Below the pieces are notes generated by a model. That model was not told the origin of the DNA. It worked only from the letters and a program-made list of their open reading frames with translations, and searched no databases. From contig CAUJDN010000109.1 in the NCBI GenBank assembly GCA_963169195.1, positions 5,695 through 69,694 on the forward strand: a DNA stretch of 64,000 nucleotides, in the 5' to 3' direction. Shown here in pieces: positions 6,033 through 53,247 of the stretch. Origin of the DNA: Acidobacteriota bacterium (GTDB lineage Bacteria; Acidobacteriota; Vicinamibacteria; Vicinamibacterales; UBA2999). Within the stretch, counting starts at the first letter, position 1, and every line of letters begins with the position of its first letter. The position numbers were made by a program, and so were the translations under genes.

Positions 6033-7280
6033 ATGCTCCACATCGAGAACCGCCGTCGCACCGTGCCCGTGAAGGTCGGCGGCGTCACCGTCGGCGGCGG
6101 CGCGCCCATCGTGGTGCAGTCCATGACGATGACCGACACGGCGGATGCGGCGGCGACGGCGCGGCAGTGCGTGGAGCTGTGGGAAGCCGGCTCCGAGATG
6201 GTCCGCGTGACCGTGAACCTGCCGGAGGCGGCTGCCGCGGTGCCGGAAATCAAGCGGCGGATGCTCGACGTCGGCTGCACGGCGCCGCTCATCGGCGACT
6301 TCCATTACAACGGCCACCTGCTGCTCACGCGGTTTCCCGAGTGCGCCCGCGCGCTGGACAAGTACCGGATCAACCCGGGGAACGTCGGCACCGGGAAGCG
6401 CCGCGACGAGCAGTTCTCCACCATCTGCCAGGTGGCGCGCGATCACGGCAAACCGGTCCGCATCGGCGTCAACGGCGGCTCCCTCGACCAGGAGCTGGTG
6501 ATGGCGAAGATGCAGGAGAACACCGACCGCGGCCTCGGGCGCGAGTCGGACGACATCGTCAACGAGTGCATGGTGCTGTCGGCCGTGCAGTCCACCGAGC
6601 TCGCCCTCGAGTCCGGGCTGACCGGGAACCAGATCATCGTCTCCTGCAAGGTGTCGCGCCCGCGCCACCTGATCGACGTGTACCGCGCGCTGGCGAAACA
6701 GACGCGGCAGCCGCTGCACCTGGGCCTCACCGAGGCGGGCATGGGCACGAAGGGCCTGGTGTGGTCGGCCGCGGCCATCGGCATTCTCCTGAACGAGGGC
6801 ATCGGCGACACCATCCGCGTGTCGCTCACGCCGCGGCCCGGAGGCGACCGGCGCGAGGAGGTGTACGCGGCCTGCGAGATCCTGCAGGCGCTCGGCCTGC
6901 GCTCCTTCGCGCCGAGCGTCACGGCCTGCCCGGGGTGCGGCCGCACGACCAGCACCACGTTCCAGGAGCTGGCCGAGGCGGTGCAGGGATACATCCGTGC
7001 GCAGATGCCCGCGTGGAGCCAGCGCTACGAGGGCGTGGAGCGCCTCACGCTGGCCGTGATGGGTTGCGTCGTCAATGGCCCCGGCGAGTCGAAGGCCGCC
7101 AACATCGGCATCTCGCTCCCGGGGACCGGCGAGGCACCGAACTGCCCGGTGTTCATCGACGGCCAGCACGTCACGACGCTGCGCGGCACCTATGAAGAGC
7201 TGGCGGCGGCGTTCGAGAAGCTGGTGGACGAGTACGTCGAGACGCACTACGCAAGGAAGGAACAGGTTTTGGGGTTCTGA
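6033..7280 (+). CDS. ispG: 4-hydroxy-3-methylbut-2-en-1-yl diphosphate synthase (flavodoxin), MEP pathway
   Basis: Full-length match by eye to IspG/GcpE: [31 protein letters not shown], and C-terminal CPGCGRT...[10 protein letters not shown] cluster ligands. Confidence 0.95.
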
Positions 7281-7326
7281 GGTTCTGGGGTTCTGGGGTT
7301 CTGAAGTTCTGGGGTTCTCGGGTTCG
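7271..7326 (+). repeat. tandem octamer array, GGGGTTCT-type, 7 units
   Basis: ggggttct gaggttct ggggttct ggggttct gaagttct ggggttct cgggttcg. The ispG stop codon (7278-7280) lies inside the first unit boundary. Confidence 0.9.
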
Positions 7327-7437
7327 TTGATTCGTGCGACTCCCGACTCCCGGTTCCCGACTCCCGGCGTGCTCTCCCCCCGACGCCATCGCAACCACTC
7401 GCCATACTCCACGCAGAGACCGCGGTGGGAGCTCCCC

Positions 7438-8003: not shown

Positions 8004-8044
8004 GGGGGGTCCAAGGGTGCAGGGGTGCAAGGGTACAGGGGTGC
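8004..8044 (+). repeat. tandem octamer array, AGGGGTGC-type (reverse complement of the GCACCCCT family), 4-5 units
   Basis: ggggggtcc aagggtgc aggggtgc aagggtac aggggtgc. It fills the gap between the stop at 7998 and the GTG start at 8049. Confidence 0.85.
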
Positions 8045-12642: not shown

Positions 12643-12685
12643 GATGCTCCCGCGCCGCCGCGGGCCGAGAATACCACGCGGCCGA

Positions 12686-13942
12686 TCAGTCGTCGTGCGT
12701 GATCAGACGGACGCTGCGCTGGTACGTCACATAGGACACGGCCCACTGCAGCATCACCGACGCGCGGTTGCGGAAACCGATGAGGAAGGCAATGTGGAGG
12801 AAGACCCAGAACAGCCACCCGAGGTAGCCCGACAGCCGCAGGACGCCGAAGTCCGCGATGGCCGCGTTCCGCCCGATGGTCGCCAGGTTCCCGGGATCGA
12901 TGTACCGGAAGGGCCGCGTGGGCTCGCCCGACAGGTGTCGCAGCGCGTTGCGGGCGGCGTGCCGGCCCAGCTGCTTGGCCGCTTGCGCCACCCCTGGCAG
13001 CGGCTTGCCCGTCTGGTGGGTGAACGATGCGAGGTCGCCCGCGATGAACACGTCGGGATGCCCTGGGACCGACAGGTCCGGCTCGACCACGACGCGGCCC
13101 GCACGGTCCAGCTCGGTGCCAACCCACCGGCCAAGCGGCGAGGCCTGCACCCCGGCCGCCCACAGGACCGTCCCGGCGTCGATGCGCTCGCCGCCGAGCT
13201 GCACCCCTTCATCGTCGATGGCCGTGACGGGTGTCCCCTCGCGCACCTGGACGCCGAGGCGTGTGAGGGATCGCCGCGCCGACGCGCGCAGTGACGCCGG
13301 AAACGTCGTCAGGATCGACGGCCCCCCCTCGAGCAGCAGGATGCGGGCCGACGCCGGGTCGACGTTGTCGAACTCGGAACGGAGCACCTGCCGGGCAATC
13401 TCGGCCAGCGCACCCGCCAGCTCCACGCCCGTCGGACCGCCGCCGACGATGGCGAAAGTGAGCAGGCGGCGCTGGCGTGCCGCATCGGATTCGCGCTCGG
13501 CCTTCTCGAACGCCAGCAGCACGCGCTTCCGGATCTCGAGCGCATCGTCGAGCGTCTTCAGGCCGGGCGCGCGCGGAGGCCAGTCGGCGTGGCCGAAGTA
13601 CGAGTGCGTCACCCCGGTCGCGACGATGAGCGCGTCGTAGGCCAGAGTGTCTCCTCCGTCGAGGTGCAGGCACTGCGTGCCGGGATCGATCCGCTCGACC
13701 GTGGCGAGCAGCACACGGAGGTTCGCCTGGCGCCGGAGGATCCAGCGGATGGGCGACGCGATGTCGCCGGGCGAGAGCCCTGCGGTGGCGACCTGGTAGA
13801 GCAGGGGCTGGAACACGTGATGGTTGTGCCGATCCACCAGTGTGACGCGGACGGGCCTGCGCGCCAGCACGCGGGCGGCATCGAGCCCCGCGAACCCGCC
13901 GCCGATGATGACGATGTGAGGGACGTGGGGACCGTCGGTCAT
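12686..13942 (-). CDS. ndh: type II NADH:quinone oxidoreductase (NDH-2) family, FAD-dependent
   Basis: PHIVIIGGGFAGLDAA and a second GxGxxG (FAIVGGGPTGVELAG) are present, with a C-terminal membrane-associated helix. Start MTDGPH at 13942 overlaps (ATGA) the upstream permease stop. Confidence 0.85.
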   Translation of the reverse strand: MTDGPHVPHIVIIGGGFAGLDAARVLARRPVRVTLVDRHNHHVFQPLLYQVATAGLSPGDIASPIRWILRRQANLRVLLATVERIDPGTQCLHLDGGDTLAYDALIVATGVTHSYFGHADWPPRAPGLKTLDDALEIRKRVLLAFEKAERESDAARQRRLLTFAIVGGGPTGVELAGALAEIARQVLRSEFDNVDPASARILLLEGGPSILTTFPASLRASARRSLTRLGVQVREGTPVTAIDDEGVQLGGERIDAGTVLWAAGVQASPLGRWVGTELDRAGRVVVEPDLSVPGHPDVFIAGDLASFTHQTGKPLPGVAQAAKQLGRHAARNALRHLSGEPTRPFRYIDPGNLATIGRNAAIADFGVLRLSGYLGWLFWVFLHIAFLIGFRNRASVMLQWAVSYVTYQRSVRLITHDD

Positions 13943-15216
13943 TCGTAGCGCAGGGCCTCGACCGGATCCAGCCCGGCCGCACGCCGGGCCGGCCAATACC
14001 CCGCCAGAATACCAACGAACACCGAGGTGGTCAGCCCCGATACCACGGCCCAGAGCGGAGGGGTGGCCGGAAACGTGGGGGCCAGGAAGGCCGCCAGCAG
14101 CCCGAGCAGCGCAGCCAGCACGACGCCGGCCAGCCCGCCGGCGCTCGACAGGATGGCGGCCTCGAAGAGGAACTGGCGGAGGACCTCGCCGCGCTTCGCG
14201 CCAATGGCCAGGCGCACGCCAATCTCCCGCGTGCGCTCCGTCACGCTGATGATCATCACGTTGGCGATGCCGATGCCGCCGATGAGCAGGCTCACCGCGG
14301 CCAGCGCGATCGTGGCGAGGAAGATCTGGAAGCCGAGCCGATCGAACTGCGCGATGATCTGGTCGGCGGTGTTCAGCGCGAAGTTGTCCGGCTCCCCCGG
14401 CGGCACGTTGCGCAGCAGCCGCAGGATGGTGGCCGCCTCGAGACGCGCCTCCTCGCGCCGGCCCGGGTACGCGCGGATGTACAGCACCGTGTTCTCCGCG
14501 TCCGGGAACTTCAGGCGGGCGGTGTTCACCGGGATGGCCACCACCCGGTCGTTGCGGTTCTCGCCGAAGAAGGTCCCTCGCCGGGGTGCCAGCTCGCCCA
14601 CGACGTAGTAGCGGTCGCCGCCCAGCAGGAACGACTGCCCCACCGACGAGCGCGGCCCGAACAGCGCGCGCGCGATGCTGGATCCGAGCACGGCCACCTG
14701 CGCGCGGGCCCGCTCCTCGTAGTCGGTGAACGGTCGGCCCCCCCTGAACTCGGCGCCCACGACGTCGTAGAAGTTCGGCGAGATGCCCTCGACGAGCAGC
14801 GTATCGGACTCGTTGGTGCCTGCGCGGGCGGTGATCGCCCGGGTCCCGGTCACGACGGGCACGATGAGCTCGATGCCGACATCCCGAATGGACGGGCCGA
14901 GCGCCGCGATCCGCGGCGCGAACTCCGCCCTCAGGGGCGGCCGCTTCACGTCCTGTGACGTGCCCGCGGCGTACGGCTCGCCGCTCGTGTGAAACGCGAA
15001 GATGTTGTCCGTGCCCAGCTCGCGGAAGAGGAGCGCGACGCTGTTGCGCAGTCCGACCAGCGTGGACGAGACGAGCACCACCGTCACGATACCGATGACG
15101 ACACCGACGATCGCGAGCGCGGAGCGGGCCGGTTGCGATCGGATGGACTCGATGGCCAGGTCGGCGGCCTCGCGCAGCTCGCTCGCGACCGACTCCTGGA
15201 TGGGCGCCGTCGCCAC
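13939..15216 (-). CDS. ABC transporter permease, MacB/FtsX family
   Basis: N-terminal TM helix, periplasmic MacB_PCD-like region, and C-terminal FtsX TMs (VTERTREIGVRLAIGAKRGEVLRQFL). Confidence 0.9.
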   Translation of the reverse strand: MATAPIQESVASELREAADLAIESIRSQPARSALAIVGVVIGIVTVVLVSSTLVGLRNSVALLFRELGTDNIFAFHTSGEPYAAGTSQDVKRPPLRAEFAPRIAALGPSIRDVGIELIVPVVTGTRAITARAGTNESDTLLVEGISPNFYDVVGAEFRGGRPFTDYEERARAQVAVLGSSIARALFGPRSSVGQSFLLGGDRYYVVGELAPRRGTFFGENRNDRVVAIPVNTARLKFPDAENTVLYIRAYPGRREEARLEAATILRLLRNVPPGEPDNFALNTADQIIAQFDRLGFQIFLATIALAAVSLLIGGIGIANVMIISVTERTREIGVRLAIGAKRGEVLRQFLFEAAILSSAGGLAGVVLAALLGLLAAFLAPTFPATPPLWAVVSGLTTSVFVGILAGYWPARRAAGLDPVEALRYE

Positions 15217-15218
15217 GG

Positions 15219-16445
15219 TTACTCCGACCTCATCGCCGTCACCACGTCGAGGTGCACCGCACGGCGCGCCGGGTACCAGCCCGCGGCCAGCCCGCTCAGG
15301 CCCGAAGCGGCCAGGCTCGTCGCCACCGTCCCCGGCGCCACGGTCAGCGGCAGGTCGAGGAGGCGTGCCGCCAGCGCGACCAGGGCCACCGCGGCCGCCG
15401 TGCCCGCGGAGCCGCCGACGAGGGCCACGAGGGCCGACTCGGCCAGCACCTCGCGCATGATCTGGGCCCGCGGGGCCCCGACGGCGCGGCGCATGCCGAT
15501 CTCACGAGTGCGCTGGGTCACCGAGACGAGCACGGTGTTCGTGACGACGACGATGGCCGCCAGCAGGGCCATCAGCGAGATGGGCCCCGCCGCGGCGCCA
15601 ATGCGCTCCGACAGGCTGGCGACGAAGTCGCGGGCGGCGTCCGGCGTGAGGATGTCGAAGGTGTCGGGCACGCCAGGGCCAAGCGCCCGGCGGGCTCGAA
15701 GGGAGACACGCGCGCGGTCCTCGCCCGTGATCGAGGGAAGGTCGGCGGCGGCCTTCGCGAAGATCTGCAGCGAGGCCGGCGCGCCGAACGCGCGCTCGTA
15801 GGCGAGCAGCGGAATCCACACGTACTTGTCGAGCGAGACGCCCCCCGACTGTCCCTGCCGGTCCTGGATGCCGATGACGGTGAACCGCCGCCCCGCGAGG
15901 CGCATCGTCTGCCCGAGAGGGTCCACGCCCGGGAAGAGCGTGTCGACCACGTCGGCCCCGATCACGGCGACCGCGTCGCCGCGCCCATCCTCGTCGGCCC
16001 GGAAGAAACGCCCGCGGCCAATCGTGAGGTCGCGCAGCTCGGCGATCTCCCAGGTGGTGCCGGTCACCGACGCGCCCTCGAACTTCCGTCCGCCCGAGGT
16101 CACGTCCGCGCGCGCCTGGGCATTGGGAGCGTACAGCACGAGGCCGCCGGCAAGGCGCTCCAGGAACCTCAGCTCCGAGCGCCGGATGGGCGGGTTGCGC
16201 AGCAGCTGTTCCTGCAGCTCGCGCCGCGAGACGCGACCCGGCGAGGCGACCTGCGCGATGAGGAAGGTATCGGCGCCGAAGGTCCGGGCGGTGGTCTGTC
16301 GCGCGTAGCGCGCGACGCCGTCCAGGGCCGACACCACCAGGACGATGGTCGCGACGGCGACGGCGATTGCGAGCGCCCCGAGGCCGGCGCGCAACGGATT
16401 CCCGAGGAGTGCCGCCCCCCCCTGCCTCAGTGCTTCGCGTATCAT
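15219..16445 (-). CDS. ABC transporter permease, MacB/FtsX family
   Basis: Same architecture (VTQRTREIGMRRAVGAPRAQIMREVL). Start taken at MIREAL (16445); ATG 16472 is an alternative. Confidence 0.9.
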   Translation of the reverse strand: MIREALRQGGAALLGNPLRAGLGALAIAVAVATIVLVVSALDGVARYARQTTARTFGADTFLIAQVASPGRVSRRELQEQLLRNPPIRRSELRFLERLAGGLVLYAPNAQARADVTSGGRKFEGASVTGTTWEIAELRDLTIGRGRFFRADEDGRGDAVAVIGADVVDTLFPGVDPLGQTMRLAGRRFTVIGIQDRQGQSGGVSLDKYVWIPLLAYERAFGAPASLQIFAKAAADLPSITGEDRARVSLRARRALGPGVPDTFDILTPDAARDFVASLSERIGAAAGPISLMALLAAIVVVTNTVLVSVTQRTREIGMRRAVGAPRAQIMREVLAESALVALVGGSAGTAAAVALVALAARLLDLPLTVAPGTVATSLAASGLSGLAAGWYPARRAVHLDVVTAMRSE

Positions 16446-16510
16446 CCGCACGGTATGACGCCAGTGTCGCACCGAACGCCCCCGATTCGGAGTCTAATCA
16501 GCGCACGCAC

Positions 16511-17755
16511 ATGAACACACGTCGCCTCCTGGCTGGAGCCGTTGTCCTTGCCCTCGCGGCGGGCGCCTGGTACGCGCGCCGAGGGGCGGAGGACGGAACG
16601 CTCGCCGACCTCTCCACCGTCACCCGCACGCCCTCGCTGCAGTCCTACGTCACCGCATCGGGAGAGATCGTCGCCACGCGCTTTGCCGACATCGGATCGG
16701 CCTCGATGGGCCGGCTCGTCTCGTTGACCGTCAAGGAAGGCGAGGCGGTGACGGCCGGCCAGGTGGTCGCGCGCATCGACCCGGTACAGGCCTCGGCGAC
16801 GGCTGATGCCGCGTTCGCCGGGCTGCGGGCGCTCGAGGCCGAAGTCGGCGCGGCGGCGAACCAGATCCGGGCCGCACAAGCGGACCTGGCGGCTGCCGAA
16901 GCCCGCGCGACCGACGCCCAGCGCGCGCTCACACGCGCGCGCGAGCTGCGGCAGGCCGGCCTCATCGCCCAGGCCGAGTTCGACACCGCGCAGGCGACAT
17001 CCGACTCCGCCGCCGCGCAGGTGCGGGCCGCTGAGGCCTCCATCCGGCGCCTCGAGGAGGCCCGCGCCGCCGCCGATCGGCGCGTGGCGCAGGGCCGCGC
17101 CGACGTGGCACGCGCCCGCGATCAGCTCGCGAAGACCGACATCACGGCTCCCATCGACGGCGTGGTCACCCGCCTCGACGTCGAGGAGGGCGAGATGGTG
17201 GTCATCGGCGTGCAGAACCAGCCGGGCACCATCCTGATGACCATCTCGGACCTCAGTTCGATCAACGCCGAGGTCAAGGTCGCCGAAGCCGACGTCCTTC
17301 GGCTGGCCACCGGGAACACGGCCGACGTGACGCTCGAGGCCCTTCCCGGGCGGACCTTCCCCGGCAGGGTGGTGGAGATCGGCGCCAGCGCCCTGCCGCA
17401 GATTGGCACGCAGGCGGCCGCCCGCGAGTTCCGCGTGAAAGTGCGCCTCGAGACCGCGGTCGACGCCCTCCGACCCGGCCTGACCTGCGATGCCGAGATC
17501 CTGGTGGCCGAGCGCGCCAACGTCCTCACCGTGCCGCTCCAGGCCGTGGTCCAGCGCACCGGCGCTTCCGGCGCGCCGGAGGTGGGCGTCTTCGTCGTCA
17601 CCGACGGCATCGCCCGATTCACTCCGGCCAAGACCGGCATCATCGGCGGCCTCACCATCGAAATCGAGGGCGTGCCCGAAGGCGCCTCCATTGTCTCGGG
17701 TCCGTTCCAGGTGCTGCGCGAGATCCAGGACGGGGAACGAATCAGGACCAGATAG
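16511..17755 (+). CDS. efflux transporter periplasmic adaptor subunit (HlyD/MacA family)
   Basis: ATG 16511 inside ORF 16367..17755. Signal anchor, lipoyl-like GEIVA...V.VKEGE.V..GQVVARID, a long coiled coil, and a beta-barrel region. Confidence 0.9.
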   Translation: MNTRRLLAGAVVLALAAGAWYARRGAEDGTLADLSTVTRTPSLQSYVTASGEIVATRFADIGSASMGRLVSLTVKEGEAVTAGQVVARIDPVQASATADAAFAGLRALEAEVGAAANQIRAAQADLAAAEARATDAQRALTRARELRQAGLIAQAEFDTAQATSDSAAAQVRAAEASIRRLEEARAAADRRVAQGRADVARARDQLAKTDITAPIDGVVTRLDVEEGEMVVIGVQNQPGTILMTISDLSSINAEVKVAEADVLRLATGNTADVTLEALPGRTFPGRVVEIGASALPQIGTQAAAREFRVKVRLETAVDALRPGLTCDAEILVAERANVLTVPLQAVVQRTGASGAPEVGVFVVTDGIARFTPAKTGIIGGLTIEIEGVPEGASIVSGPFQVLREIQDGERIRTR

Positions 17756-17758
17756 CTT

Positions 17759-17862
17759 TGGGTTCTGGGGTTCTGGGGTTCTGAGGTTCTGGGGTTCTGG
17801 GGTTCTGGGGTTCTCGGGTTCTGGGGTTCTGAGGTTCTCGGCTTCTCCGGTTCTCGGGTTCT
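17759..17862 (+). repeat. tandem octamer array, GGGGTTCT-type, 13 units
   Basis: Starts 4 nt after stop 17755. Units are ggggttct/gaggttct/cgggttct with 3' decay (cggcttct ccggttct cgggttct). Confidence 0.95.
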
Positions 17863-17863
17863 G

Positions 17864-17903
17864 TGCCCCCTGCACCCCTGCACCCCTGCACCCCCTGCAC
17901 CCC
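17864..17903 (+). repeat. tandem array, TGCACCCC-type (8-9 nt), 5 units, abutting the previous array
   Basis: tgccccc tgcacccc tgcacccc tgcaccccc tgcacccc. Confidence 0.9.
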
Positions 17904-17908
17904 TGAAG

Positions 17909-17914
17909 TACACT
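17909..17914 (+). promoter_or_regulatory. -10-like box TACACT, 7 nt before the ATG at 17922 (leaderless-type geometry)
   Basis: TACACT-GCCGGTC-ATG. Confidence 0.4.
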
Positions 17915-17921
17915 GCCGGTC

Positions 17922-19940
17922 ATGCCCCGCCCTGCCGTTGCGCCGGTCGAGTCCACCGTCGAGACGGCGTGCCCGCTCGATTGCCCGGATGCCTGTGCCC
18001 TTACCGTCACCCTGCGGGGCGGGCGGATTGCGCGCATCAACGGCGGCACGGCCAACGAGGTGACGCGCGGCTACATCTGCGCGAAGGTCCGCCACTTCGA
18101 CCGGCGTGTCTACGGCGACGACCGTCTGCACTTCCCGGCCATCCGCCGCGGCCCCAAGGGCAAGGGCGAATTCACGCGCGTGACGTGGGACGACGCGCTG
18201 GACCGGATTGCCGGGAGGCTCGAGCAGGTGCGGCAGACCGACGGCCCCGAGGCCATCCTGCCCCTCTGCTACGGCGGCTCGAACGGCTACCTCACGCAGG
18301 ACTACGCCGACGCCATCCTGTTCCGCCGGCTCGGCGCGTCCCGCCTGCTCCGCACCGTGTGTGCGGCCCCGACCGGGGCGGCCAACGCGGGCCTCTACGG
18401 CAAGATGGGCTCGGTCGCGTACCAGGACTATCCCTCCGCGCGCCTCATCCTCGTCTGGGGGGTCAATCCCGGCGTCTCGGGCATCCACCTGATGCCCTAC
18501 CTCAAGGAGGCTCGCGAGCAGGGCGCCACCATCGTCGTCATCGATCCGAGGGCGACGAGCGTGGCACGCCAGTCGCACATTCACCTGGCCGTTCGTCCCG
18601 GAACCGACCTGGCCGTCGCGCTCGCCATGCATCGGCACCTGTTCGAGGAGGGCCTCGCCGACCAGGCCTTCCTGGCCACGCACGCCACCGGCGCCGACGC
18701 GCTCCGCGAGCGTGCGAGGCCGTGGACCTTCGAGCGGGCGGCCGAGGTGAGCGGCGTGCCGGCCGAGCGCCTGCGGCAGGTAGCCGACCTGTACGCCCGG
18801 ACGTCACCAGCCCTCGTGAAGTGCGGATGGGGCCTGGAGCGCAACCGCAACGGCGGCAGCGCGGCCGCCGCGGTCCTGGCCCTGCCCGCCGTCGGCGGCA
18901 AGTTCGGCGTGCGCGGCGGCGGGTATTCGATGAGCAACTCCGCGACGTGGGGCATCGAACGCCGGTGGCTCCACGACGGCGAGTCCGGGAGCCGCACCGT
19001 CAACATGAACCTCGTGGGCCGCGAGCTCACGACGCCCTCGGCGACGCCGGTTCGCGCGCTCTTCGTGTACAACTGCAACCCAGCGGTCACGCTCCCCGAC
19101 CAGGCCCGCGTGCTCGAGGGCCTGTCACGCCAGGACCTGTTCACGGTCGTCTTCGACCAGGTGCTCACCGACACGGCGCTCTACGCGGACGTCGTGCTGC
19201 CCGCCACCACGTTCCTGGAGCACTACGACTACGCGAAGGCGTATGGCGCATTGTCACTGCAGCTCGCGCGGCCGGTCATCGAGCCCGTCGGCGAGTCCCG
19301 ATCGAACACCGAGGTGTTCATGGATCTCGTGCGGCGGATGGGCCTGTCGCGCGACGGCGATCCTGACGACGATCTGGACGCGATGCTGGCCTCGCTCGCC
19401 GGGATGCCCGACGTCATCGGCGACGAGCTGCGGGCGACCTGGTGCGCGACGCCGCCCTTCAACGGCCGCCCCGTCCAGTTCGTGGACGTCTTCCCGAACA
19501 CGCCCGACCGCAGGATCCACCTCTGCCCCGAGACCCTGGATCGTGAAGCGCCCCGCGGCCTCTACGGCTACCAGGAGGATCCCGCCACCGCACGCTTCCC
19601 GCTGGCGCTCATCTCGCCTGCGAGCGAGCGCACGATCAGCTCCACTCTCGGCGAGTTCACGCGCCCCGACATCGCCCTCGACATGAACCCGGCCGACGCC
19701 GACGCGCGCGGCATCGAGGACGAGGATGACGTGCGGATGTTCAACAGCCAGGGTGAAGTGACGTTGAGGGCGCGGGTGACGCCGCTGGTGCGGCCCGGCA
19801 CCGTGTCGACCCCCAAGGGGGTGTGGCGCCGGCACACGCCCAACGGCTGGACGTCGAACGTGCTGGTCCCGGACAGCCTGACCGATCTGGGTGGCGGCGC
19901 GTGTTTCAACGACGCGCGCGTCGAGGTGGAAAGAGCCTGA
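17922..19940 (+). CDS. molybdopterin (bis-MGD) oxidoreductase family protein
   Basis: N-terminal 4Fe-4S motif CPLDCPDACAL...C, followed by the molybdopterin oxidoreductase and C-terminal dinucleotide-binding domains (RIHLCPE...LISPASERTISS...MNPADA). Substrate unknown. Confidence 0.9.
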   Translation: MPRPAVAPVESTVETACPLDCPDACALTVTLRGGRIARINGGTANEVTRGYICAKVRHFDRRVYGDDRLHFPAIRRGPKGKGEFTRVTWDDALDRIAGRLEQVRQTDGPEAILPLCYGGSNGYLTQDYADAILFRRLGASRLLRTVCAAPTGAANAGLYGKMGSVAYQDYPSARLILVWGVNPGVSGIHLMPYLKEAREQGATIVVIDPRATSVARQSHIHLAVRPGTDLAVALAMHRHLFEEGLADQAFLATHATGADALRERARPWTFERAAEVSGVPAERLRQVADLYARTSPALVKCGWGLERNRNGGSAAAAVLALPAVGGKFGVRGGGYSMSNSATWGIERRWLHDGESGSRTVNMNLVGRELTTPSATPVRALFVYNCNPAVTLPDQARVLEGLSRQDLFTVVFDQVLTDTALYADVVLPATTFLEHYDYAKAYGALSLQLARPVIEPVGESRSNTEVFMDLVRRMGLSRDGDPDDDLDAMLASLAGMPDVIGDELRATWCATPPFNGRPVQFVDVFPNTPDRRIHLCPETLDREAPRGLYGYQEDPATARFPLALISPASERTISSTLGEFTRPDIALDMNPADADARGIEDEDDVRMFNSQGEVTLRARVTPLVRPGTVSTPKGVWRRHTPNGWTSNVLVPDSLTDLGGGACFNDARVEVERA

Positions 19941-19951
19941 GGACCCGCCGC

Positions 19952-19992
19952 CAGCCATCCGTCTCGGGCCGGGGCCTGCAGGCGGATGGCTG
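19952..19992. terminator. hairpin between convergent genes (10-bp stem CAGCCATCCG/CGGATGGCTG, 21-nt GC-rich loop)
   Basis: Perfect inverted repeat seen in the sequence. No U-tract. Confidence 0.4.
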
Positions 19993-20012
19993 ACAGACGG
20001 GACGTGGAAACG

Positions 20013-20216
20013 CTATTCGCCGCTCGGCAGCTTGCCGCGGCCTCCGCGCGAGACCTGACCGCCCTTGCGGCCGGCTTCGCGGGCTTCCTGGGCAGACCAC
20101 TCGTGCGCCGTGCCTTTGGCGTGAGCCGCGCGACCACCCTTGCTGGCGATTTCGCGCTGCTTCTCCGGGGACATCGAGGCAAAGCCTCGGCGGGCCTTAC
20201 GAATGACTTCGAGCAC
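20013..20216 (-). CDS. KGG-repeat general stress protein (YciG-like)
   Basis: RGFASMSPEKQREIASKGG...EAGRKGG. GTG 20216 lies 8 nt after a perfect AGGAGG. The ORF track start at 20285 is probably too long. Confidence 0.8.
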   Translation of the reverse strand: MLEVIRKARRGFASMSPEKQREIASKGGRAAHAKGTAHEWSAQEAREAGRKGGQVSRGGRGKLPSGE

Positions 20217-20383
20217 GGTCAACACCTCCTTGGCCAATCCGTGAAGCGAGATGCTTGCCAGAATCAGCGGGGCCGGCACAACCACAAGTCATTTCTCGAC
20301 AACCACTTGTGCGTATCAGGGAATCTCGGGCCCCAGCGGGACCGTATGAAAACCATACAGCCATTCGGTTGAGGTGGCGGGAT

Positions 20384-20620
20384 TCAATACGATGCCGGAT
20401 CCAGACGGCGTCGCGGCTTGAACACGTCACAGTGCTCGCAGTTGCGGATGTCGAACTCGTAGCCGACCAGCGGGAAGAACATCGGGTGCGCGCAGTACAG
20501 AAGCTGCCCGTCCACGATGGTGTGGATGGTCAGGTCCGCGGGGATGGAAGGGGTGCGGCGTCCGTACCAGCAGAGACGATGACGGTCTTCGGGTTCCACG
20601 GGGCGCCCCGCACCCATCAT
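20384..20620 (-). CDS. small hypothetical protein with conserved-looking Cys/His residues (78 aa)
   Basis: MMGAGRPVEPEDRHRLCWYGRRTPSIPADLTIHTIVDGQLLYCAHPMFFPLVGYEFDIRNCEHCDVFKP. High GC3. Start chosen to avoid overlap with yggX; 20644 and 20707 are alternatives. Confidence 0.5.
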   Translation of the reverse strand: MMGAGRPVEPEDRHRLCWYGRRTPSIPADLTIHTIVDGQLLYCAHPMFFPLVGYEFDIRNCEHCDVFKPRRRLDPASY

Positions 20621-20642
20621 AATGGGGACGGAGGCAGGGAAC

Positions 20643-20972
20643 ATGAGCGTGTGTGGGGGTCCGACGGGCGCGCCGGACGAGGGCGCAGGCAACAAGAGCG
20701 GCCGCAAGGTCTTCTGCGTGAAGTTCCAGAAGGAGATGCCGGGGCTTGACTACGCGCCGTGGCCGGGCGAGCTCGGGCAGCGCATCTACGAGCACGTGTC
20801 CGCCCAGGCCTGGAAGCTCTGGGAGGACCGCCAGAAGATGATCCTCAACGAGTACCGCCTCATGCCGTGGCAGAAGGAGGCCCAGGAGCTGATTCGGACC
20901 CAGCTCGAGGAGTACTTCTTCGGGGAGGGCGCTGCCCTGCCGCCGGGCTACGTGCCGCAGCAGAGCAAGTAG
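20643..20972 (+). CDS. yggX: Fe(2+)-trafficking / oxidative-damage protection protein YggX family
   Basis: KVFCVKFQKEMPGLDYAPWPGELGQRIYEHVSAQAWKLWEDRQKMILNEYRL closely parallels E. coli YggX. GGAGG lies 8 nt upstream of ATG 20643. Confidence 0.85.
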   Translation: MSVCGGPTGAPDEGAGNKSGRKVFCVKFQKEMPGLDYAPWPGELGQRIYEHVSAQAWKLWEDRQKMILNEYRLMPWQKEAQELIRTQLEEYFFGEGAALPPGYVPQQSK

Positions 20973-21013
20973 GGTTCTGGGGTTCGCGGGTTCTGGGGGG
21001 TCGGGGTTCCTCG
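20972..21013 (+). repeat. degenerate GGGGTTCT-type array (about 5 units), followed by a 2x TCTCACGTC motif
   Basis: gggttctg gggttcgc gggttctg gggggtcg gggttcct, then ttctcacgtc-tac-ttctcacgtc. The ATP-grasp C-terminus and stop lie in the second motif. Confidence 0.8.
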
Positions 21014-21035
21014 GAGCCCTTCTCACGTCTACTTC

Positions 21036-22379
21036 TCACGTCGCACCTCTCTTCTGACTGCTCCTGACGGGCAGGTACGGGTCGATTGAGAAGCGGAGCG
21101 AGGCGTGCGCGGTGCGGAGCGCGTGCTCCACGACTTCGGGCGTGGCGCCGTGCGCGAAGAGGAATCCCAGGTAGCTGCTGCCCTCGGGCAGCGGGACCAG
21201 TCGCTGGTCCGTCTTCGCGGTGATCACGACGTCGTCAATCCCCGGCAGGGCTCTGGCCGCCTCGATGCCCTCGACGCGCCGGAGGATCCCGCCGCGGGGG
21301 ATGGGGATCATCATCACGCCGGAGGCCTCCGGCTCGCGCACCCACCCGTCCGGGGGCTCGCCAAGGGCGTGACGGAGCAGCAGGACCTCGAGCCCCGCGC
21401 GTGCGTCGGGCGGCCCTGCCTCCCGCACGAAGCGCAGGGCCCGGGCGCACAGGCCGCCAATCGGGCGCGCGGCGACCTCCAGTACGTACACGCCGTCGGC
21501 CGCCACGCGGCACTCGGCGTGGATCGGCCCATGGCTGAGGCCAACCGCGCGGGCCGCCGACGCCACCGCCGAGACGATGGCGTGCTGCGTGGAGCGGGCC
21601 TCCCGCGACGGCGTGACATAGAGGGTCTCCTCGAAGTACGGACCCTCGAGCGGATCGGGTTTGTCGAAGATCGCCAGCACGTGGAGGGCACCTCGATTGA
21701 GCACGCCCTCGAGCGCGTACTCGACGCCGTCGATGTAGCTCTCCACCTGCACGACACCGGGTTCGACACCGTCCGATGCGCGGACCCCCGGCGAGTCGAG
21801 GAGCTGCCGGATGCGGTGCACCGCCGCCGCGAACGACGACGGGTCGTCCGCGCGGATGACACCGCGGGATCCGGAGAGCGTCGTTGGCTTCACGACGACC
21901 GGGAAGCGAAGGGCGCCGGCGAGGGCGGCCGCGTCACTGCCGGCCTCGAGCACGGTGACAGCAGGCACCGGCAGGCCCGCGTCCCGCAGGCGCGCCCGCA
22001 TGCGGCGCTTGTCGCGCGCGATCTCGGCGCCGTCCGGCTCGTGGCCGGGCAGACCGAGGTGCCGCGCGACCAACGCGGCCAGCACGGCCGGCCCGTCGCC
22101 AACGGCGAGCACACCGTCCACGGGCAGGGCCAGGAGGGCTCGCTGGATGGTCCGGAGCGAGGCCTCCGGTTCGGCGAACCGCACCGCAAGGGCGCCATCG
22201 CGCCAGGGGTCATCCAGGTGACCGCACCGGTCCGTGGCGTACACGATCTCGACCCCGGCCCCTGCGGCGGCGTCCTCGAACATGCGCGTCTGGTAGCCGG
22301 TCGTCGTGGCCAGGAGCAGCACGCGCCGCGGCCGCGGCATGGGCGCCGGCGTGCCGGTCATCGCCGCCATGGGTGGCAT
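21036..22379 (-). CDS. ATP-grasp domain protein (carboxylate-amine/thiol ligase superfamily)
   Basis: DKRRMRARLRDAGLPVP...FPVVVKPTTLSGSRGVIRA...VESYIDGVEYALEG...GPIHAECRV..DGVYVLEVAARPIGG is the typical ATP-grasp core. It starts 10 nt after the extended radical SAM stop. Confidence 0.85.
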   Translation of the reverse strand: MPPMAAMTGTPAPMPRPRRVLLLATTTGYQTRMFEDAAAGAGVEIVYATDRCGHLDDPWRDGALAVRFAEPEASLRTIQRALLALPVDGVLAVGDGPAVLAALVARHLGLPGHEPDGAEIARDKRRMRARLRDAGLPVPAVTVLEAGSDAAALAGALRFPVVVKPTTLSGSRGVIRADDPSSFAAAVHRIRQLLDSPGVRASDGVEPGVVQVESYIDGVEYALEGVLNRGALHVLAIFDKPDPLEGPYFEETLYVTPSREARSTQHAIVSAVASAARAVGLSHGPIHAECRVAADGVYVLEVAARPIGGLCARALRFVREAGPPDARAGLEVLLLRHALGEPPDGWVREPEASGVMMIPIPRGGILRRVEGIEAARALPGIDDVVITAKTDQRLVPLPEGSSYLGFLFAHGATPEVVEHALRTAHASLRFSIDPYLPVRSSQKRGAT

Positions 22380-22389
22380 CGACGAGGCG

Positions 22390-23835: not shown

Positions 23836-23860
23836 GCGCCCAGCGTAGCACCGCAGTGAA

Positions 23861-23985
23861 CCTGCGTGCCTCGCCCCCCCGTGCTTCGAACCCCCGTGCT
23901 TCGAACCCTCGTGCTTCGAACCCCCGTGCTTCGAACCCCCGTGCATAGCACCTTTCGTGCCTCGAACCTTCGTGTCTATACTCTC
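23861..23985. repeat. 15-bp tandem array (CCCCCGTGCTTCGAA-type), about 8 units, in a divergent promoter region
   Basis: cctgcgtgcctcgcc cccccgtgcttcgaa x2 ccctcgtgcttcgaa cccccgtgcttcgaa cccccgtgcatagca, then decayed units. Same family as 29510..29644. Confidence 0.9.
23977..23982 (+). promoter_or_regulatory. -10-like box TATACT, 18 nt before the ATG at 24001
   Basis: TATACT lies inside the decayed end of the 15-mer array. Confidence 0.3.
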
Positions 23986-24000
23986 CCGGGGGTTTCGACC

Positions 24001-29050: not shown

Positions 29051-29509
29051 TTACGGCCCCGTCGGGCTGGCCCCGTGCGGGGCCGTCAGCCTGACGGCGA
29101 GACGTCGGGCCAGGTCTGCGTCGCCGAGGGGATCGAACGGACGGGCCTCCGTCCAGTCGTGCAGCCAGACGGGCTGCCGGCGGCGCTCCGGCGGTTCCCA
29201 GGCGTAGCGCGGGATGATGTGGGCGTGCAGCGCCGCCTCGACGTTGCCCAGAATCTCGTAGTTCACGCGCTCGGCGGCTGTTTCTGCGAGGATGGCGTCG
29301 CCGACGCGGCCCATGTCGGCCAGGAACGTCCGCCGCGCGTCGCCCACCAGCCCATTGAGGTCGGTCACGACAGGGTCCGGATACAAGAGGCAGTAGCCCG
29401 GCAGAATCTGCGGGTCCCCCAGAACCACCCACCCGGATCCCACGCGGGTCACCACGCGCGCAAGCTCGCCTCGCCGCGCCTGCTCCACGAACCGATGGAT
29501 CGCCGTCAC
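29051..29509 (-). CDS. HIT-like family protein
   Basis: The C-terminal half contains NVEAALHAHIIPRY, resembling a degenerate HIT motif. GTG start at 29509. Confidence 0.55.
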   Translation of the reverse strand: MTAIHRFVEQARRGELARVVTRVGSGWVVLGDPQILPGYCLLYPDPVVTDLNGLVGDARRTFLADMGRVGDAILAETAAERVNYEILGNVEAALHAHIIPRYAWEPPERRRQPVWLHDWTEARPFDPLGDADLARRLAVRLTAPHGASPTGP

Positions 29510-29644
29510 CCCCGTGCCTCGAACCTCCGTGCCTCGAACCTCCGTGCCTCGAACCTCCGTGCTTCGAACCTCCGTGCTTCGAACCTCCGTGCTTCGAACC
29601 TCCGTGCTTCGAACCTCCGTGCTTCGAACCTCCGTGCTTCGAAC
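29510..29644. repeat. 15-bp tandem array CCTCCGTGC(C/T)TCGAA, 9 units; fills the entire intergenic gap
   Basis: cccccgtgcctcgaa, cctccgtgcctcgaa x2, cctccgtgcttcgaa x6. On the transcribed (minus) strand each unit reads UUCGAAGCACGGAGG. Confidence 0.95.
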
Positions 29645-31084
29645 CTACTTGCGATAGTCCAGCGCGGGTTTCCGATCGGCAAGCCTGGTCGAGTACTTGA
29701 ATCCCGGCCCGCGCCGCTGGTCGAACTCCGCGCGCGCCTTCTGGATGTGTGCCGGGTCGGAGAAGAGGTCGATGGCCGTGAGCGCCATGCTCTTGGCCGC
29801 CACGAGCATGCCCTTGACGCCAATCGAGGTGCCGCCGGCGGCCACGGCCTGCCAGCTGTGGGCGGGCGTTCCCGGCACCCAGGTGGCCGAGGTGAGCTGT
29901 ACGGTCGGCACGTTCCAGCTGACATCCCCGAGATCGGTGGACGCGCTGCCGATGCCGGGCTCCGGCGTGAACACCGAATTGGCGCTGTCGATGGGCGGCA
30001 GGTTGCCGTCGAGCGACACCCGGAGGATCTCGGCGAACTGGCGCTCGGCCGGCGTGTACTCGTAGCCGCCGACCGCCTGCAGGTTCTTCTGCATCAGCCC
30101 CACCAGATAGGAGTTGGGCAGGACGTTCCAGACGGCCCCGGTCAGTTCCAGCTCCATCGTCGTGTCCGTGCCGAGGGCGGCGCCGCGCGCGGCGTTCTGG
30201 ATGCGCTCCCAGATGCCTTCGAGCACGCGCATGTCGTTGTGGCGGGCGTAGTAGTAGGCCTCGGCGAAGTCGGGCACGACGTTCGGCGCGCGGCCACCGT
30301 TCGTGATGACGTAGTGGATGCGCGCGTCGGAGGGCACGTGCTCCCGCATCAGGTTCACCATGGCGTTCATCGCCTCGACGCCGTCGAGGGCCGAGCGCCC
30401 GCGGTCCGGGGCGGACGAGGCGTGGGCGGATTGGCCGCGGAAGCGGAACTTGCCCGTGATATTCGCCAGCGTGCTCGACGCGCTCGACGCGTTCCGGTCC
30501 CCGGGGTGCATCGTGACGACGACGTCCACGTCGCTGAAGAGCCCCGCGCGCAGCATGTAGACCTTGCCGGCGCCGCCTTCCTCGGCGGGCGTCCCGAAGA
30601 AGCGCAGCGTGCCGGGCCGCTTCGCCGCCACGAGCCACTCCTTCACCGCGATCGCGGCGGCCGTCGAGGCCGTGCCGAAGAGGTGATGGCCGCATCCGTG
30701 GCCCGCGCCGTCGGGGACGAGCGCGTGCCGCTCGGGCTCGGCCGCCTGCGACAGGCCGGGCAGCGCGTCGAACTCCCCGACGATGCCGATGACGGGCTGG
30801 CCGCTGCCCCACTCGGCGGTGAACGCCGTGGGGATCTCGGCCACGCCGGCCTCGACCGTGAAGCCGGCGGTGCGCAGCTGCTCCTGCAGCAGCGCGCTGC
30901 TCTTCTCCTCCTGGTAGCCGACCTCGGCGAACGACCAGATCCGCAGCGCGACGTCGGCGTACGCCTGGCCCCTGCTGTCGATCGACGCGAGGACGGCTTT
31001 CGCGTCCATGCCCTGTCCCTGGAGCGGCGCCGTCACGGCCGCCCACGCCATCAGCGCCCCCGCGAGCCCGTATCTCATGGCCAT
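29645..31084 (-). CDS. M20 family amidohydrolase (AbgB / aminobenzoyl-glutamate utilisation protein B-like), secreted
   Basis: Signal peptide MAMRYGLAGALMAWAAVTAPLQGQG. Motifs EVGYQEEKSS, GEFDALPGLSQ, GHGCGHHLFG. Paralog at 40569..42200. Confidence 0.85.
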   Translation of the reverse strand: MAMRYGLAGALMAWAAVTAPLQGQGMDAKAVLASIDSRGQAYADVALRIWSFAEVGYQEEKSSALLQEQLRTAGFTVEAGVAEIPTAFTAEWGSGQPVIGIVGEFDALPGLSQAAEPERHALVPDGAGHGCGHHLFGTASTAAAIAVKEWLVAAKRPGTLRFFGTPAEEGGAGKVYMLRAGLFSDVDVVVTMHPGDRNASSASSTLANITGKFRFRGQSAHASSAPDRGRSALDGVEAMNAMVNLMREHVPSDARIHYVITNGGRAPNVVPDFAEAYYYARHNDMRVLEGIWERIQNAARGAALGTDTTMELELTGAVWNVLPNSYLVGLMQKNLQAVGGYEYTPAERQFAEILRVSLDGNLPPIDSANSVFTPEPGIGSASTDLGDVSWNVPTVQLTSATWVPGTPAHSWQAVAAGGTSIGVKGMLVAAKSMALTAIDLFSDPAHIQKARAEFDQRRGPGFKYSTRLADRKPALDYRK

Positions 31085-38607: not shown

Positions 38608-38658
38608 GCGCCCCAGTCTCCGAAACCCGGAACCCGAGAACCCCGGCCCCCGTTCGCG

Positions 38659-51232: not shown

Positions 51233-51985
51233 GTGACCCACGAACGTCGCACGCGCGCACCCCACCCGGCACCCGCCACCCGGTCCCGGCACTCTCCTCC
51301 GTTGCACCCCGCCCCCCTGCACCTTGCCCCCCTGCCCCCTGTCCTGTCCCGGAGAGAACGCGCCCTGCTCCGGCGCCTGCGCACGCCATCGGCCGTGCAG
51401 GCCTGGTTGAACGCGCTGCCCTACAACGTCGAGGCCGGCGGCGAGACCCTGCGGAGCTTCCGTGGCGTCGTGCGGGCGAACCAGGCCCATTGCCTCGAGG
51501 CCGCGCTCTTCGCCGCCGTGGTGCTCGAGCACAATGGCTACCCGCCCCTCGTGATGAGCCTGGAGTCGCAGGACAACCTGGATCACGTCATCTTCGTGTA
51601 TCGCGCAAAGGGGCATTGGGGCTCGGTGGCCCGCTCCCGCGACCCGGGGCTGCACGGGCGCAAGCCGGTGTTCCGCACCATCCGCGGGCTGGCCTACAGC
51701 TACATGGACCCGTACGTCGACGACACGGGCCGCGTGCTCGGCTACGGCGTGGCCAACCTGGCCGAAGCCATGGGCCGATACGACTGGCGCTGGTCGTTCG
51801 GGAACTGCTGGAAGGTGGAGCGGGTCCTCATCGACTGGCCCCACGTCAAGCTCCCCAGCTCGACGCCCCGCTATCGGGAGCTGAAGCGCCGCTACCGCGC
51901 CTACCGGGCGGCCAACAACGACCGGAAGCCGCTCGACTACCGGGGCCGTGAGAAGTGGACGCCGATTCCTGCGGAGTTCACGTAG
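51233..51985 (+). CDS. hypothetical protein, possible transglutaminase-like cysteine peptidase fold (start uncertain)
   Basis: QAHCLEAALFAAVVLEHNGYPPLVMSL...LDHVIFVY gives a Cys...His...Asp spacing suggestive of the fold. The N-terminal about 35 aa are encoded by C-rich repeat-like DNA (PLHPAPLHLAPLPP). Confidence 0.55.
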   Translation: MTHERRTRAPHPAPATRSRHSPPLHPAPLHLAPLPPVLSRRERALLRRLRTPSAVQAWLNALPYNVEAGGETLRSFRGVVRANQAHCLEAALFAAVVLEHNGYPPLVMSLESQDNLDHVIFVYRAKGHWGSVARSRDPGLHGRKPVFRTIRGLAYSYMDPYVDDTGRVLGYGVANLAEAMGRYDWRWSFGNCWKVERVLIDWPHVKLPSSTPRYRELKRRYRAYRAANNDRKPLDYRGREKWTPIPAEFT

Positions 51986-52020
51986 GTCTTGGGGCCTTGG
52001 GGCCTTGTGGCCTTGCGGTC
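51986..52020 (+). repeat. tandem octamer array, CTTGGGGC-type, about 4 units
   Basis: gtcttggggc cttggggc cttgtggc cttgcggt, starting at the stop of the plus-strand gene. Confidence 0.85.
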
Positions 52021-52118
52021 GCAGAACCCCGAGAACCCGAACCCCAGAACCCCAGAACCCCCGAACCGCAGAACCGCAGAACCCCCGAACCCGAGAAACC
52101 GAGAACCCGAGAACCCCG
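52021..52118 (-). repeat. GGGGTTCT-type array on the minus strand (CAGAACCC on plus), about 12 units
   Basis: gcagaacc ccgagaac ccgaaccc cagaaccc cagaaccc ccgaaccg cagaaccg cagaaccc ccgaaccc gagaaacc gagaaccc gagaaccc. It ends 2 nt before the stop of the minus-strand gene 52121..52423. Confidence 0.9.
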
Positions 52119-53210: not shown

Positions 53211-53247
53211 AGCCCCCAAGTCCCAAGCCCCAAACCCCAAGCCCCCC
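53211..53247 (-). repeat. CTTGGGG-type array on the minus strand (CCCCAAG on plus), about 5 units
   Basis: agcccccaag tcccaag ccccaaa ccccaag cccccc, lying between convergent stops 53205 and 53249. Confidence 0.8.

Follow-up and report, generated by a model that had tools for sequence, protein, structure and literature searches.

Why do short tandem repeats built on a run of G residues recur between the genes of a bacterial genome, and what decides on which strand the G residues lie? The question is raised by a 64,000-nt stretch (hereafter the window) of contig CAUJDN010000109.1 (positions 5,695 to 69,694, forward strand) from assembly GCA_963169195.1 of an Acidobacteriota bacterium (Vicinamibacterales, UBA2999), in which the octamer GGGGTTCT is tandemly repeated at several loci. 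A reading based on the letters and their open reading frames (the sequence-only reading) had described a dispersed intergenic family, with several unit families abutting one another. Both descriptions were borne out, and the units have the design G-run plus 3-4 nt. The arrays are securely assigned to the G-rich, gene-flanking simple-sequence repeats described by Rehm et al. 2015 (PMC4692102), which here occur in Vicinamibacterales and behave like variable-number tandem repeats (VNTRs). The unit families placed in this class are GGGGTTCT, GGGGTCTT, GGGGTGCA, CTTGGGG(C) and GGGAGTC. On the sense strand, G-rich arrays lie immediately after stop codons and C-rich arrays immediately before start codons.

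Arrays of period 7 and 8 were called in the window with Tandem Repeats Finder and the letters were then read directly. Both procedures placed the arrays within a few bases of the coordinates given by the sequence-only reading (Table 1). Genes were mapped by third-position G+C (GC3) because the window has 70% G+C, and the map was compared with database gene calls. By both, all of these arrays were intergenic or touched a stop codon only. A census that also covered other loci counted 16 arrays in the 64 kb of the window; gene calls enclosed 4 of these, and the other 12 lay between genes. A search for (GGGGTTCT)2 with ≤2 mismatches gave 24 matches in the window, 0.01 being expected from dinucleotide shuffles; (TGCACCCC)2 with ≤3 mismatches gave 11 matches (1.6 expected from shuffles) and GGTTCT gave 48 (15.6 expected). 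As these counts are far above the shuffle expectation, a chance origin of the arrays is excluded. The decayed traces that had also been listed are real but faint: 38605-38650 holds a single 16-mer match with 2 mismatches, and 50640-50675 and 51295-51340 are faint only.

Placement relative to genes was analysed over all loci, where ~85-90% of 248 arrays were intergenic. For 153 skewed intergenic arrays, the 5' end of the G-rich strand lay at a median of 11 nt from the nearest gene boundary, against 91 nt for the 3' end (5' end nearer versus 3' end nearer, 116:36, p=5e-11); within the window alone the split was 9:0. The boundary at this 5' end was about equally often a stop on the same strand or a start on the other strand (81:72). 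In co-directional spacers, arrays that were G-rich on the sense strand were nearer the stop in 40:5, and those C-rich on the sense strand were nearer the start in 34:16 (Fisher p=1e-8). Where one spacer held arrays of both skews, the G-array preceded the C-array in 31/31 cases and the reverse order never occurred. Three such spacers lie in the window, with abutting pairs at 7265/7337, 17759/17864 and 51986/52021. The 5'-neighbour polarity and the 31/31 order show that placement with respect to genes and strands is not random; random placement was what the sequence-only reading had named as the outcome that would speak against it. Its suggestion of a modular system is not needed, the abutting families being a G-array beside a C-array, as in the convergent pairs of Rehm et al.

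At the level of single bases, arrays often began within the stop codon (TAG-GGTTCT, TGA-GGTTCT), or a variant unit created the frame-ending TGA or TAG; on the C side, ATG often followed directly after the last unit. The polarity was equally strong in arrays without a canonical G-quadruplex (G4) motif (39:13) and was present in arrays without any GGG (11:4). It therefore follows strand composition, not quadruplex capacity. Selection for TGA-making GAGGTTCT units in trailers was considered and rejected (27% vs 19%, p=0.07, with non-independent units). As a separate observation, 4/9 convergent gene junctions in window positions 5000-24999 and 38000-57999 consisted of repeat arrays alone.

The window proteins were found encoded with identical sequence on a JGI metagenome contig, in the metagenome-assembled genome (MAG) GCA_020853475.1, on ENA contig Vicinamibacterales_1_contig_92 (323 kb) and on many Logan short-read contigs. 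Twelve of 15 arrays were base-identical in all assemblies that covered them (2-6 independent assemblies from JGI, NCBI MAG, ENA and Logan runs). Since the same arrays appear in independent assemblies, they are real and not the assembly artefacts that the sequence-only reading had considered. The other 3/15 differed by whole units between near-identical assemblies, which is the unit-number variation among strains that had been proposed as a check. The 17760 array has 13 units in the window and 11 in two other assemblies, the 29508 15-mer array has 9.3 units in the window and 6.3 in the JGI assembly, and the CTTGGGGC array (51986) has one additional unit in one Logan assembly. Variation affects those arrays that are longest and most perfect, as would be expected of VNTR-like loci. 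Short-read contigs often break off inside the perfect part of an array, and the repeats are a systematic cause of assembly fragmentation in these genomes. Among the related loci (designated by L numbers), a contig edge inside the perfect part of an array was observed at the starts of L003-L010 and at the ends of L016, L028, L040, L053, L073 and L082.

Orthologous spacers were taken from syntenic regions of five related species obtained through IspG homologues (84-93% identity), because a comparison of window proteins with those of the isolate SJ725 gave distant, paralogue-level matches only. The spacer after ispG measures 10 nt in two of the relatives and 54, 228 and 350 nt in the other three, all without an array; at the ispG stop of the closest relative, two GGGGTCTT units are present. 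Between the membrane-fusion-protein and molybdopterin oxidoreductase genes, the relatives have an array-free spacer of 39-45 nt, vs 166 nt in the window. The bases adjoining the start codon of this spacer are conserved among relatives; insertion or expansion of the arrays therefore took place between the stop codon and an older leader. At orthologous spacers in related species, arrays were absent or built of another unit. Array density in these relatives is patchy, at 0-9 Tandem Repeats Finder rows per 9-21 kb (overlapping calls unmerged, some in coding sequence), partly with other units. Repeat units of the window encode both the C-terminal residues of its IspG (..KEQVLGF) and the TGA; the orthologues end in ..YARK(N/G) or other short tails.

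Unit composition was determined for the GGGGTTCT family. The GGTTC core is ≥96% conserved, and the first two G positions match in 70-75% of units. At least GGG is retained in 75% of 875 units, and 21% carry GAGG, which breaks the G-tract. Two variants, C at position 1 and A at position 2, are seen repeatedly, at every locus and in either orientation. Copy numbers of octamer arrays are evenly spread from 3 to 15, without preference for four units; heptamer arrays peak at 4-5 copies. The canonical motif G3+N1-7 x4 was present on the G-rich strand of 8/12 listed skewed intergenic arrays in the window and of 102/184 arrays over all loci, a figure at the level of the motif. Window arrays with this motif gave absolute G4Hunter values of 1.1-2.2.

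Predicted RNA folding energies were -0.06 kcal/mol/nt for the C-strand, -0.31 for array-free leaders, -0.36 for coding sequence and -0.305 for the G-strand. G-strand array RNA is thus predicted to fold about like ordinary sequence, via G-U and G-C pairs. For the 17760 array as G-strand RNA a z of -4.7 was obtained; the CCCCTGCA leader has an open centroid and is predicted to be unstructured. The sense strand was the more structured one at stop-abutting arrays in 49:10 (49/59) and the less structured one at start-abutting arrays in 22:3 (22/25). With a G4 energy term included, the value for sense strands at stops fell from -0.26 to -0.32 kcal/mol/nt. A hairpin of the 17760 G-array with the CCCCTGCA C-array was rejected, as folding of the spacer in full was no better than that of shuffles (z=-0.07). 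Neither hairpin-plus-U-tract terminators nor sigma-70-like promoters exceeded the shuffle expectation in window positions 5000-24999 and 38000-57999, and none lay in arrays. A search of the whole window against Rfam at gathering thresholds gave no matches. One tRNA-Ala is present in the window, unconnected to the arrays.

For the distribution beyond the window, (GGGGTTCT)3 was scanned against one genome per species, and the figures cover the matches listed. Among these, most loci were in Acidobacteriota/Vicinamibacterales MAGs, with the isolate SJ725 leading at ≥35 loci; others were in a bin of ~70% G+C labelled Bifidobacteriaceae and, as single arrays, in isolates of unrelated phyla. Arrays of period 6-16 numbered 119 in 266 kb sampled from SJ725 and 52 in 87 kb of the Bifidobacteriaceae-labelled bin. 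Both share the other families of the window, namely GGGGTCTT, CTTGGGG, GGGGTGCA, GGGAGTC, CGCAGATGA, GATGGGCCGCA and the 15-mer. Contigs of that bin (CAZLBU01; L012, L025, L026 and others) have ~66-71% G+C, with repeat families and polarity as in Vicinamibacterales genomes, and the Bifidobacteriaceae label of this MAG is probably wrong. The isolates of unrelated phyla with GGGGTTCT arrays include Paenibacillus typhae (L021), Photobacterium lipolyticum (L028/L066/L073), Sphaerochaeta (L015/L016), Streptomyces (L013/L056/L075/L089/L100), L046 and others. Their arrays often carry the same GAGG and CGGG variants and often abut arrays of other short units. In scans of viral contigs with GGGGTTCT among its four spacer permutations, just 1, 1, 2 and 0 matches were obtained.

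With moderate confidence, we regard the arrays as repeats generated by slippage, with a filter on their orientation that acts on the transcript. This reading starts from the anatomy, polarity, polymorphism, between-species turnover and predicted folding asymmetry reported above. Slipped-strand mispairing or unequal recombination would create the arrays and alter their length, and the arrays would grow into all dispensable bases of a spacer, up to or over the stop codon and right to the start codon. Properties of the transcript would then decide which orientation of an array survives. C/A-rich RNA, with almost no G, would be unable to fold; arrays in this orientation make up the 5' leaders at start codons, where they may be tolerated or useful and open RNA would favour ribosome access in a genome of 70% G+C. 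G/U-rich RNA would fold via G-U and G-C pairs, possibly also as quadruplexes, and would offer few C residues to Rho; arrays in this orientation make up the 3' trailers at stop codons. Any biological function of the arrays is putative.

Several points weigh against this reading. Slippage is the inferred origin of the arrays; taken alone, it leaves unexplained why GGGGTTCT dominates at many loci with the same two variant positions and why it occurs in other phyla. Only composition and predicted folding point to selection acting on transcripts as what causes the polarity. G-strand RNA is predicted to be no more structured than ordinary intergenic RNA, so the openness of the C-strand is the one clearly unusual property. 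Where arrays fill a whole co-directional spacer, G-on-sense and C-on-sense arrays are equally frequent (10:10). Gene starts of our own map came from a simple GC3 caller. Array densities outside the window are biased, as most of the related loci were picked for (GGGGTTCT)3; the unbiased value is the 16 arrays per 64 kb of the window. Shine-Dalgarno-like motifs were found at 2/18 array-adjacent starts vs 101/297 elsewhere (p=0.07, not significant). Depletion of this motif at array-adjacent starts was accordingly rejected as a supporting feature: the trend is not significant and the motif occurs at only ~1/3 of all called starts.

Other causes of the polarity were weighed on the same data. The sequence-only reading had called the arrays canonical quadruplex formers, and the motif counts and G4Hunter values given above uphold this as a structural potential. 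It is doubtful, in our judgement, that quadruplex formation is the selected property, and unlikely that the arrays are kept as functional quadruplex or i-motif elements whose G-rich strand, (GGGGUUCU)n, folds in DNA or RNA. Past stop codons, such elements could halt RNA polymerase, terminate transcripts or shield mRNA 3' ends; upstream of starts, they could act on the template strand. The unit design of a G-run plus a loop of 3-4 nt agrees with this, analogous heptamers form G4 in vitro (PMC4692102), and the G4 term deepens the sense-strand energy at stops. No excess of canonical terminators over chance was seen in the window, which calls for another 3'-end signal. However, variation in the unit is greatest at its first two G positions and the GAGG units interrupt the tract, while GGTTC is conserved. 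The polarity is also as strong without the canonical motif and present without GGG, octamer arrays have no four-unit preference, and co-occurring families of the same polarity, such as the 29508 15-mer, are not G4 formers. The strand rule can alternatively be phrased through Rho, which prefers C-rich, G-poor, unstructured RNA. The C-rich strand always reads towards the gene, so that transcripts entering the gene from either side would carry a long Rho loading site of this kind. The ribosome at the abutting start would rescue transcripts entering in sense, those entering antisense through the 3' end would be terminated, and exiting transcripts would be G-rich and Rho-resistant. One rule would then cover both gene ends in either orientation, C-strand arrays have C:G ratios of ~2.4-6 over 30-100 nt (G=5 C=25; G=18 C=44; G=3 C=19) and are predicted to be unstructured, and canonical intrinsic terminators are not enriched. 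The reading is wholly inferential, however, and many arrays are shorter than the ~70-80 nt usually required. Arrays also occur within apparent operons, where a loading site before the next gene could harm, and 16/50 C-on-sense arrays in co-directional spacers are nearer the stop. Such polar Rho gates are considered improbable, and so, to the same degree, is the wider proposal that the arrays are genome-wide, slippage-tunable polar transcription insulators acting through Rho, in which exiting transcripts would copy a folded, G/U-rich tract resistant to Rho.

Causes that act on DNA alone were rated lower still. If the G-strand grew from one end until halted by coding sequence, or if 3' ends were extended during break repair, the polarity would be a mutational by-product with no effect on expression. 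The polarity can indeed be stated without gene direction, as stops and starts are about equally frequent at the G-strand 5' end. Turnover is fast, arrays are polymorphic and not conserved at orthologous sites, and the spacerless G/C junctions (17863/17864, 52020/52021) resemble two joined extended 3' ends. Polar growth is nevertheless unsupported, since unit degeneracy shows no gradient between gene-proximal and gene-distal halves (22:12, p=0.49). Many spacers hold unique sequence between both arrays and not outside them (L061, L055), which is the opposite of a break-repair scar, and both orientations are adjacent in the window, so replication direction cannot set the polarity. We consider this origin very unlikely. 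Least probable of all, with only a slight chance of being correct, are mobile or protein-recognised repeats, either REP/BIME-like with a transposase or sites of the (GGGGUUCU)n/(AGAACCCC)n type to which some abundant nucleic-acid-binding protein would bind, the RNA-recognition-motif (RRM) proteins of the window being candidates. A few families dominate, and the same two variant positions everywhere suggest copying between loci; the conserved GGTTC core resembles a recognition word more than a structural element, and two RRM_1 proteins are encoded in the window. Against this, the units lack internal dyad symmetry and the C strand is unfolded, Rfam gave no match, the gene tables for the window and for its relatives show no transposase or RAYT-like gene beside an array, and the RRM link is co-occurrence alone.

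Table 1. Short-unit repeat arrays of the window, with position, strand and gene context. TRF, Tandem Repeats Finder.
Array	Position	Strand	Context and remarks
(GGGGTTCT), ~7.6 units	7265..7326	+	overlaps ispG end; repeat units encode TGA stop (7278-7280); TRF 7265-7325
(CGACTCC) heptamer, ~4.3 units	7337..7367	-	C-rich on + strand; C-partner of 7265 array; upstream of ATP-synt_D-like gene (ATG 7438)
(GGGGTGCA), ~5 units	8004..8044	+	begins 5-7 nt past TAG stop of gene 7438-7998; G-rich on sense strand; TRF 8006-8044, 4.9 copies
(GGGGTTCT), 13 units	17759..17863	+	begins 3-4 nt past TAG stop of membrane-fusion-protein gene 16511-17755; TRF 17760-17863, 13.0 copies, 87% matches
(CCCCTGCA), ~5 units on + strand	17864..17905	-	G-rich on - strand; abuts 17759 array; stops 16 nt short of molybdopterin oxidoreductase ATG (17922); TRF 17867-17905, 4.8 copies
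degenerate (GGGGTTCT), ~4-5 units	20971..21013	+	begins within TAG stop of Iron_traffic gene 20643-20972; convergent intergenic region; TRF 20972-21009, 4.2 copies
15-mer (TCGAAGCACGGAGGT on - strand), 9.3 units	29508..29646	-	occupies entire spacer from stop of 29645-31084 to next start; sense strand G-rich; same polarity, different design
decayed GAACCC(C/G) trace	38608..38650	-	C-rich on + strand; between stop at 38607 and start at 38688
C-rich heptamer/15-mer tract (CACCCGG, TGCACCCCGCCCCCC, CCCCCTG)	51263..51341	-	ends 53 nt upstream of + strand gene start (51395); divergent intergenic region
(CTTGGGGC), ~4 units	51986..52020	+	begins 1 nt past TAG stop (51983-51985); TRF 51988-52015, 3.5 copies
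(GGGGTTCT), ~12 units on - strand	52021..52118	-	begins 3 nt past stop of - strand gene 52121-52423; abuts CTTGGGGC array; TRF 52022-52117, 12.1 copies, AGAACCCC on + strand
(CTTGGGG) heptamer, ~4.6 units on - strand	53211..53247	-	begins 1-2 nt past stop of - strand methyltransferase gene 53249-54505; TRF 53214-53245, CCCCAAG

Repeats of other designs were also recorded. A second 15-mer array is located at 23858-23968 (GGGGTTCGAAGCACG on the - strand); each TCGAAGCACGGAGGT unit of the 29508-29646 array contains the Shine-Dalgarno-like word GGAGG, and the 15-mer family is also present in the CAZLBU01 bin. Skew-neutral arrays of 9-11 nt units are found at 34801-34850, 35446-35492 and 39980-40065 (CGCAGATGA, GCCGCAGATGG and CGGATGGCG), with ATG and TGA both within the units. 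One of them overlaps the stop codon of an extracytoplasmic function (ECF) sigma-factor gene, and the 39980-40065 array may pair as a hairpin with an inverted copy at 40096-40118 between convergent genes. These families were also found in SJ725 and CAZLBU01. Another dispersed intergenic family lies at window positions 5849-6020 and at L033 5983-6136, L052 743-871 and L068 1242-1306. In each of its tandem units (~21-31 nt), (G)TGGGC(C) comes after a small hairpin that is GC-rich and in many cases has a TTCG or TTT loop; this family looks more REP-like than the octamer arrays do.

The two RRM_1 RNA-binding proteins of the window are encoded at 1558-2265 (+) and 50676-50999 (-). One of them has 107 aa and a glycine-rich tail, like cyanobacterial Rbp proteins and plant glycine-rich proteins (GRPs). 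Cyanobacteria are the other group that is rich in RRM proteins and G-rich heptamer repeats alike. A link between the RRM proteins of the window and the G/U-rich arrays would be pure speculation.

The published examples compared here are from Xanthomonas and Nostoc, and Vicinamibacterales provides a third, remote lineage with other units and the same polarity. Because the gene-relative polarity recurs in a remote lineage with different units, the anatomy is convergent and probably selected. The polarity of non-G4 arrays, together with the uniquely unstructured C-strand RNA, moves attention from quadruplexes to strand composition and effects at the transcript level (leaders, trailers, Rho). Were the insulator reading true, it would give a function to the Xanthomonas/Nostoc repeat class and account for its odd 5'-neighbour rule. 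In practical terms, the arrays overwrite C-termini and stop codons, disrupt short-read assemblies of Vicinamibacterales and provide VNTR markers by which strains of a soil and sludge group, abundant but poorly cultured, can be tracked.

Several known systems were compared and set aside. Clustered regularly interspaced short palindromic repeats (CRISPR) have repeats of 23-55 nt with unique spacers, whereas the units here are 7-8 nt long, head-to-tail and without spacers, as the sequence-only reading had noted. Phase-variation simple-sequence repeats switch expression through changes in unit number, within a reading frame or between promoter elements of surface or virulence genes; they were rejected because the arrays flank housekeeping genes (ispG, membrane-fusion-protein, molybdopterin oxidoreductase, Iron_traffic), after stops or before starts and outside reading frames. 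Replichore-polar octamers like the FtsK-orienting polar sequences (KOPS) were rejected because both orientations are interleaved within 64 kb. Telomeric repeats are made by telomerase and sit at chromosome ends in a single fixed orientation; those of ciliates are TTGGGG and TTTTGGGG. The resemblance to the ciliate repeats that had been pointed out holds for the design of G4 plus a short T-rich spacer with quadruplex potential, and for nothing beyond it: the arrays occupy internal positions on contigs of 63-323 kb, occur in both orientations within 64 kb, flank genes on a bacterial chromosome and give no sign of telomerase. Repetitive extragenic palindromic (REP) sequences, 20-40 nt in length, are imperfectly palindromic and fold by themselves; they are mobilised by REP-associated tyrosine transposases (RAYTs) and are thought to protect mRNA 3' ends. 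Like REP and bacterial interspersed mosaic elements (BIMEs) of enterobacteria and pseudomonads, the arrays are dispersed, intergenic, often just past stops and of alternating orientation. In contrast to them, the units are 7-8 nt long and non-palindromic, without dyad symmetry, and folding is absent altogether from one strand (the centroid of C-strand RNA is open); the distinction drawn by the sequence-only reading was therefore retained. The gene tables for the window and the related loci list no RAYT (IS200/IS605-like) transposase, the whole genome not having been searched. A literature search by sequence for the (GGGGTTCT)2 16-mer found none, nor was literature found on such repeats in Vicinamibacter, Luteitalea or Vicinamibacteria.

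Closer parallels are tandem heptamers. Mazel et al. reportedly described cyanobacterial short tandemly repeated repetitive (STRR) heptamers in 1990, of which STRR1, CCCCAGT, is said to be a rotation of the Nostoc GGGGACT unit. STRR sequences serve as fingerprinting targets. They share with the arrays the dispersed intergenic tandem arrangement and the C4/G4 run, and differ in being heptamers from a low-GC phylum. TAACTGA heptamer direct repeats occur in marine Beggiatoaceae, cyanobacteria and Bacteroidetes, and the Beggiatoaceae copies lie just upstream of start codons, for which a role as leader or translational element was proposed (MacGregor 2015, PMC4679880). That unit is A/T-rich, is mostly present in 2-6 copies per set, and has neither a trailer-side partner nor G/C polarity. 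In one related Vicinamibacterales species (L117, 14149-14260), (T/C)AACTG-type heptamers directly upstream of a molybdopterin oxidoreductase start are reminiscent of the Beggiatoaceae leader repeats. The long simple sequence repeats (LSSRs, 5-11 nt units) of Mrazek et al. 2007, on which the work of Rehm et al. builds, are summarised in PMC4679880 and PMC4060949. According to these summaries, they are over-represented in non-coding DNA of Burkholderia, Xanthomonas, cyanobacteria and actinobacteria, with slippage as the proposed origin. The arrays likewise have short tandem units enriched in non-coding DNA; as summarised there, LSSRs are a statistical class without a gene-relative polarity rule, and those two papers do not name Vicinamibacterales as rich in them.

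The sequence-only reading had set the arrays apart from known REP/BIME-type elements; they are not without precedent, the same anatomy being described for the Xanthomonas and Nostoc heptamers. In these, the G-rich repeats GGGAATC (Xanthomonas) and GGGGA(C/T)T (Nostoc) are 89-93% intergenic and lie 'almost exclusively' nearer the 5' neighbouring open reading frame in either orientation (28 vs 160 nt), that is, ≤50 bp after a stop on the coding strand or ≤50 bp before a start on the non-coding strand (PMC4692102). They overlap stop codons, form convergent inverted pairs, are rare between divergent genes and vary among related species. They formed G4 in vitro and are mostly transcribed, their function being unknown to the authors (PMC4692102). 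The arrays described here differ in their host phylum (Acidobacteriota, Vicinamibacterales), in the dominance of octamers and in the coexistence and pairing of several unit families. They are longer (5-15 units) and often reach right to the ATG, conservation within the unit is lowest in the G-tract, and the octamers lack the four-unit preference. In every other testable feature, the window arrays share the anatomy of the class: tandem 7-8 nt G-run units, genome-wide dispersal and ~90% intergenic location, overlap with stop codons, convergent inverted pairs, rarity between divergent genes and length variation among relatives. The 5'-neighbour distances of 28 vs 160 nt in Xanthomonas/Nostoc have their counterpart in 11 vs 91 nt here, and in all three lineages the repeats are G-rich on the coding strand past stops and on the non-coding strand ahead of starts.

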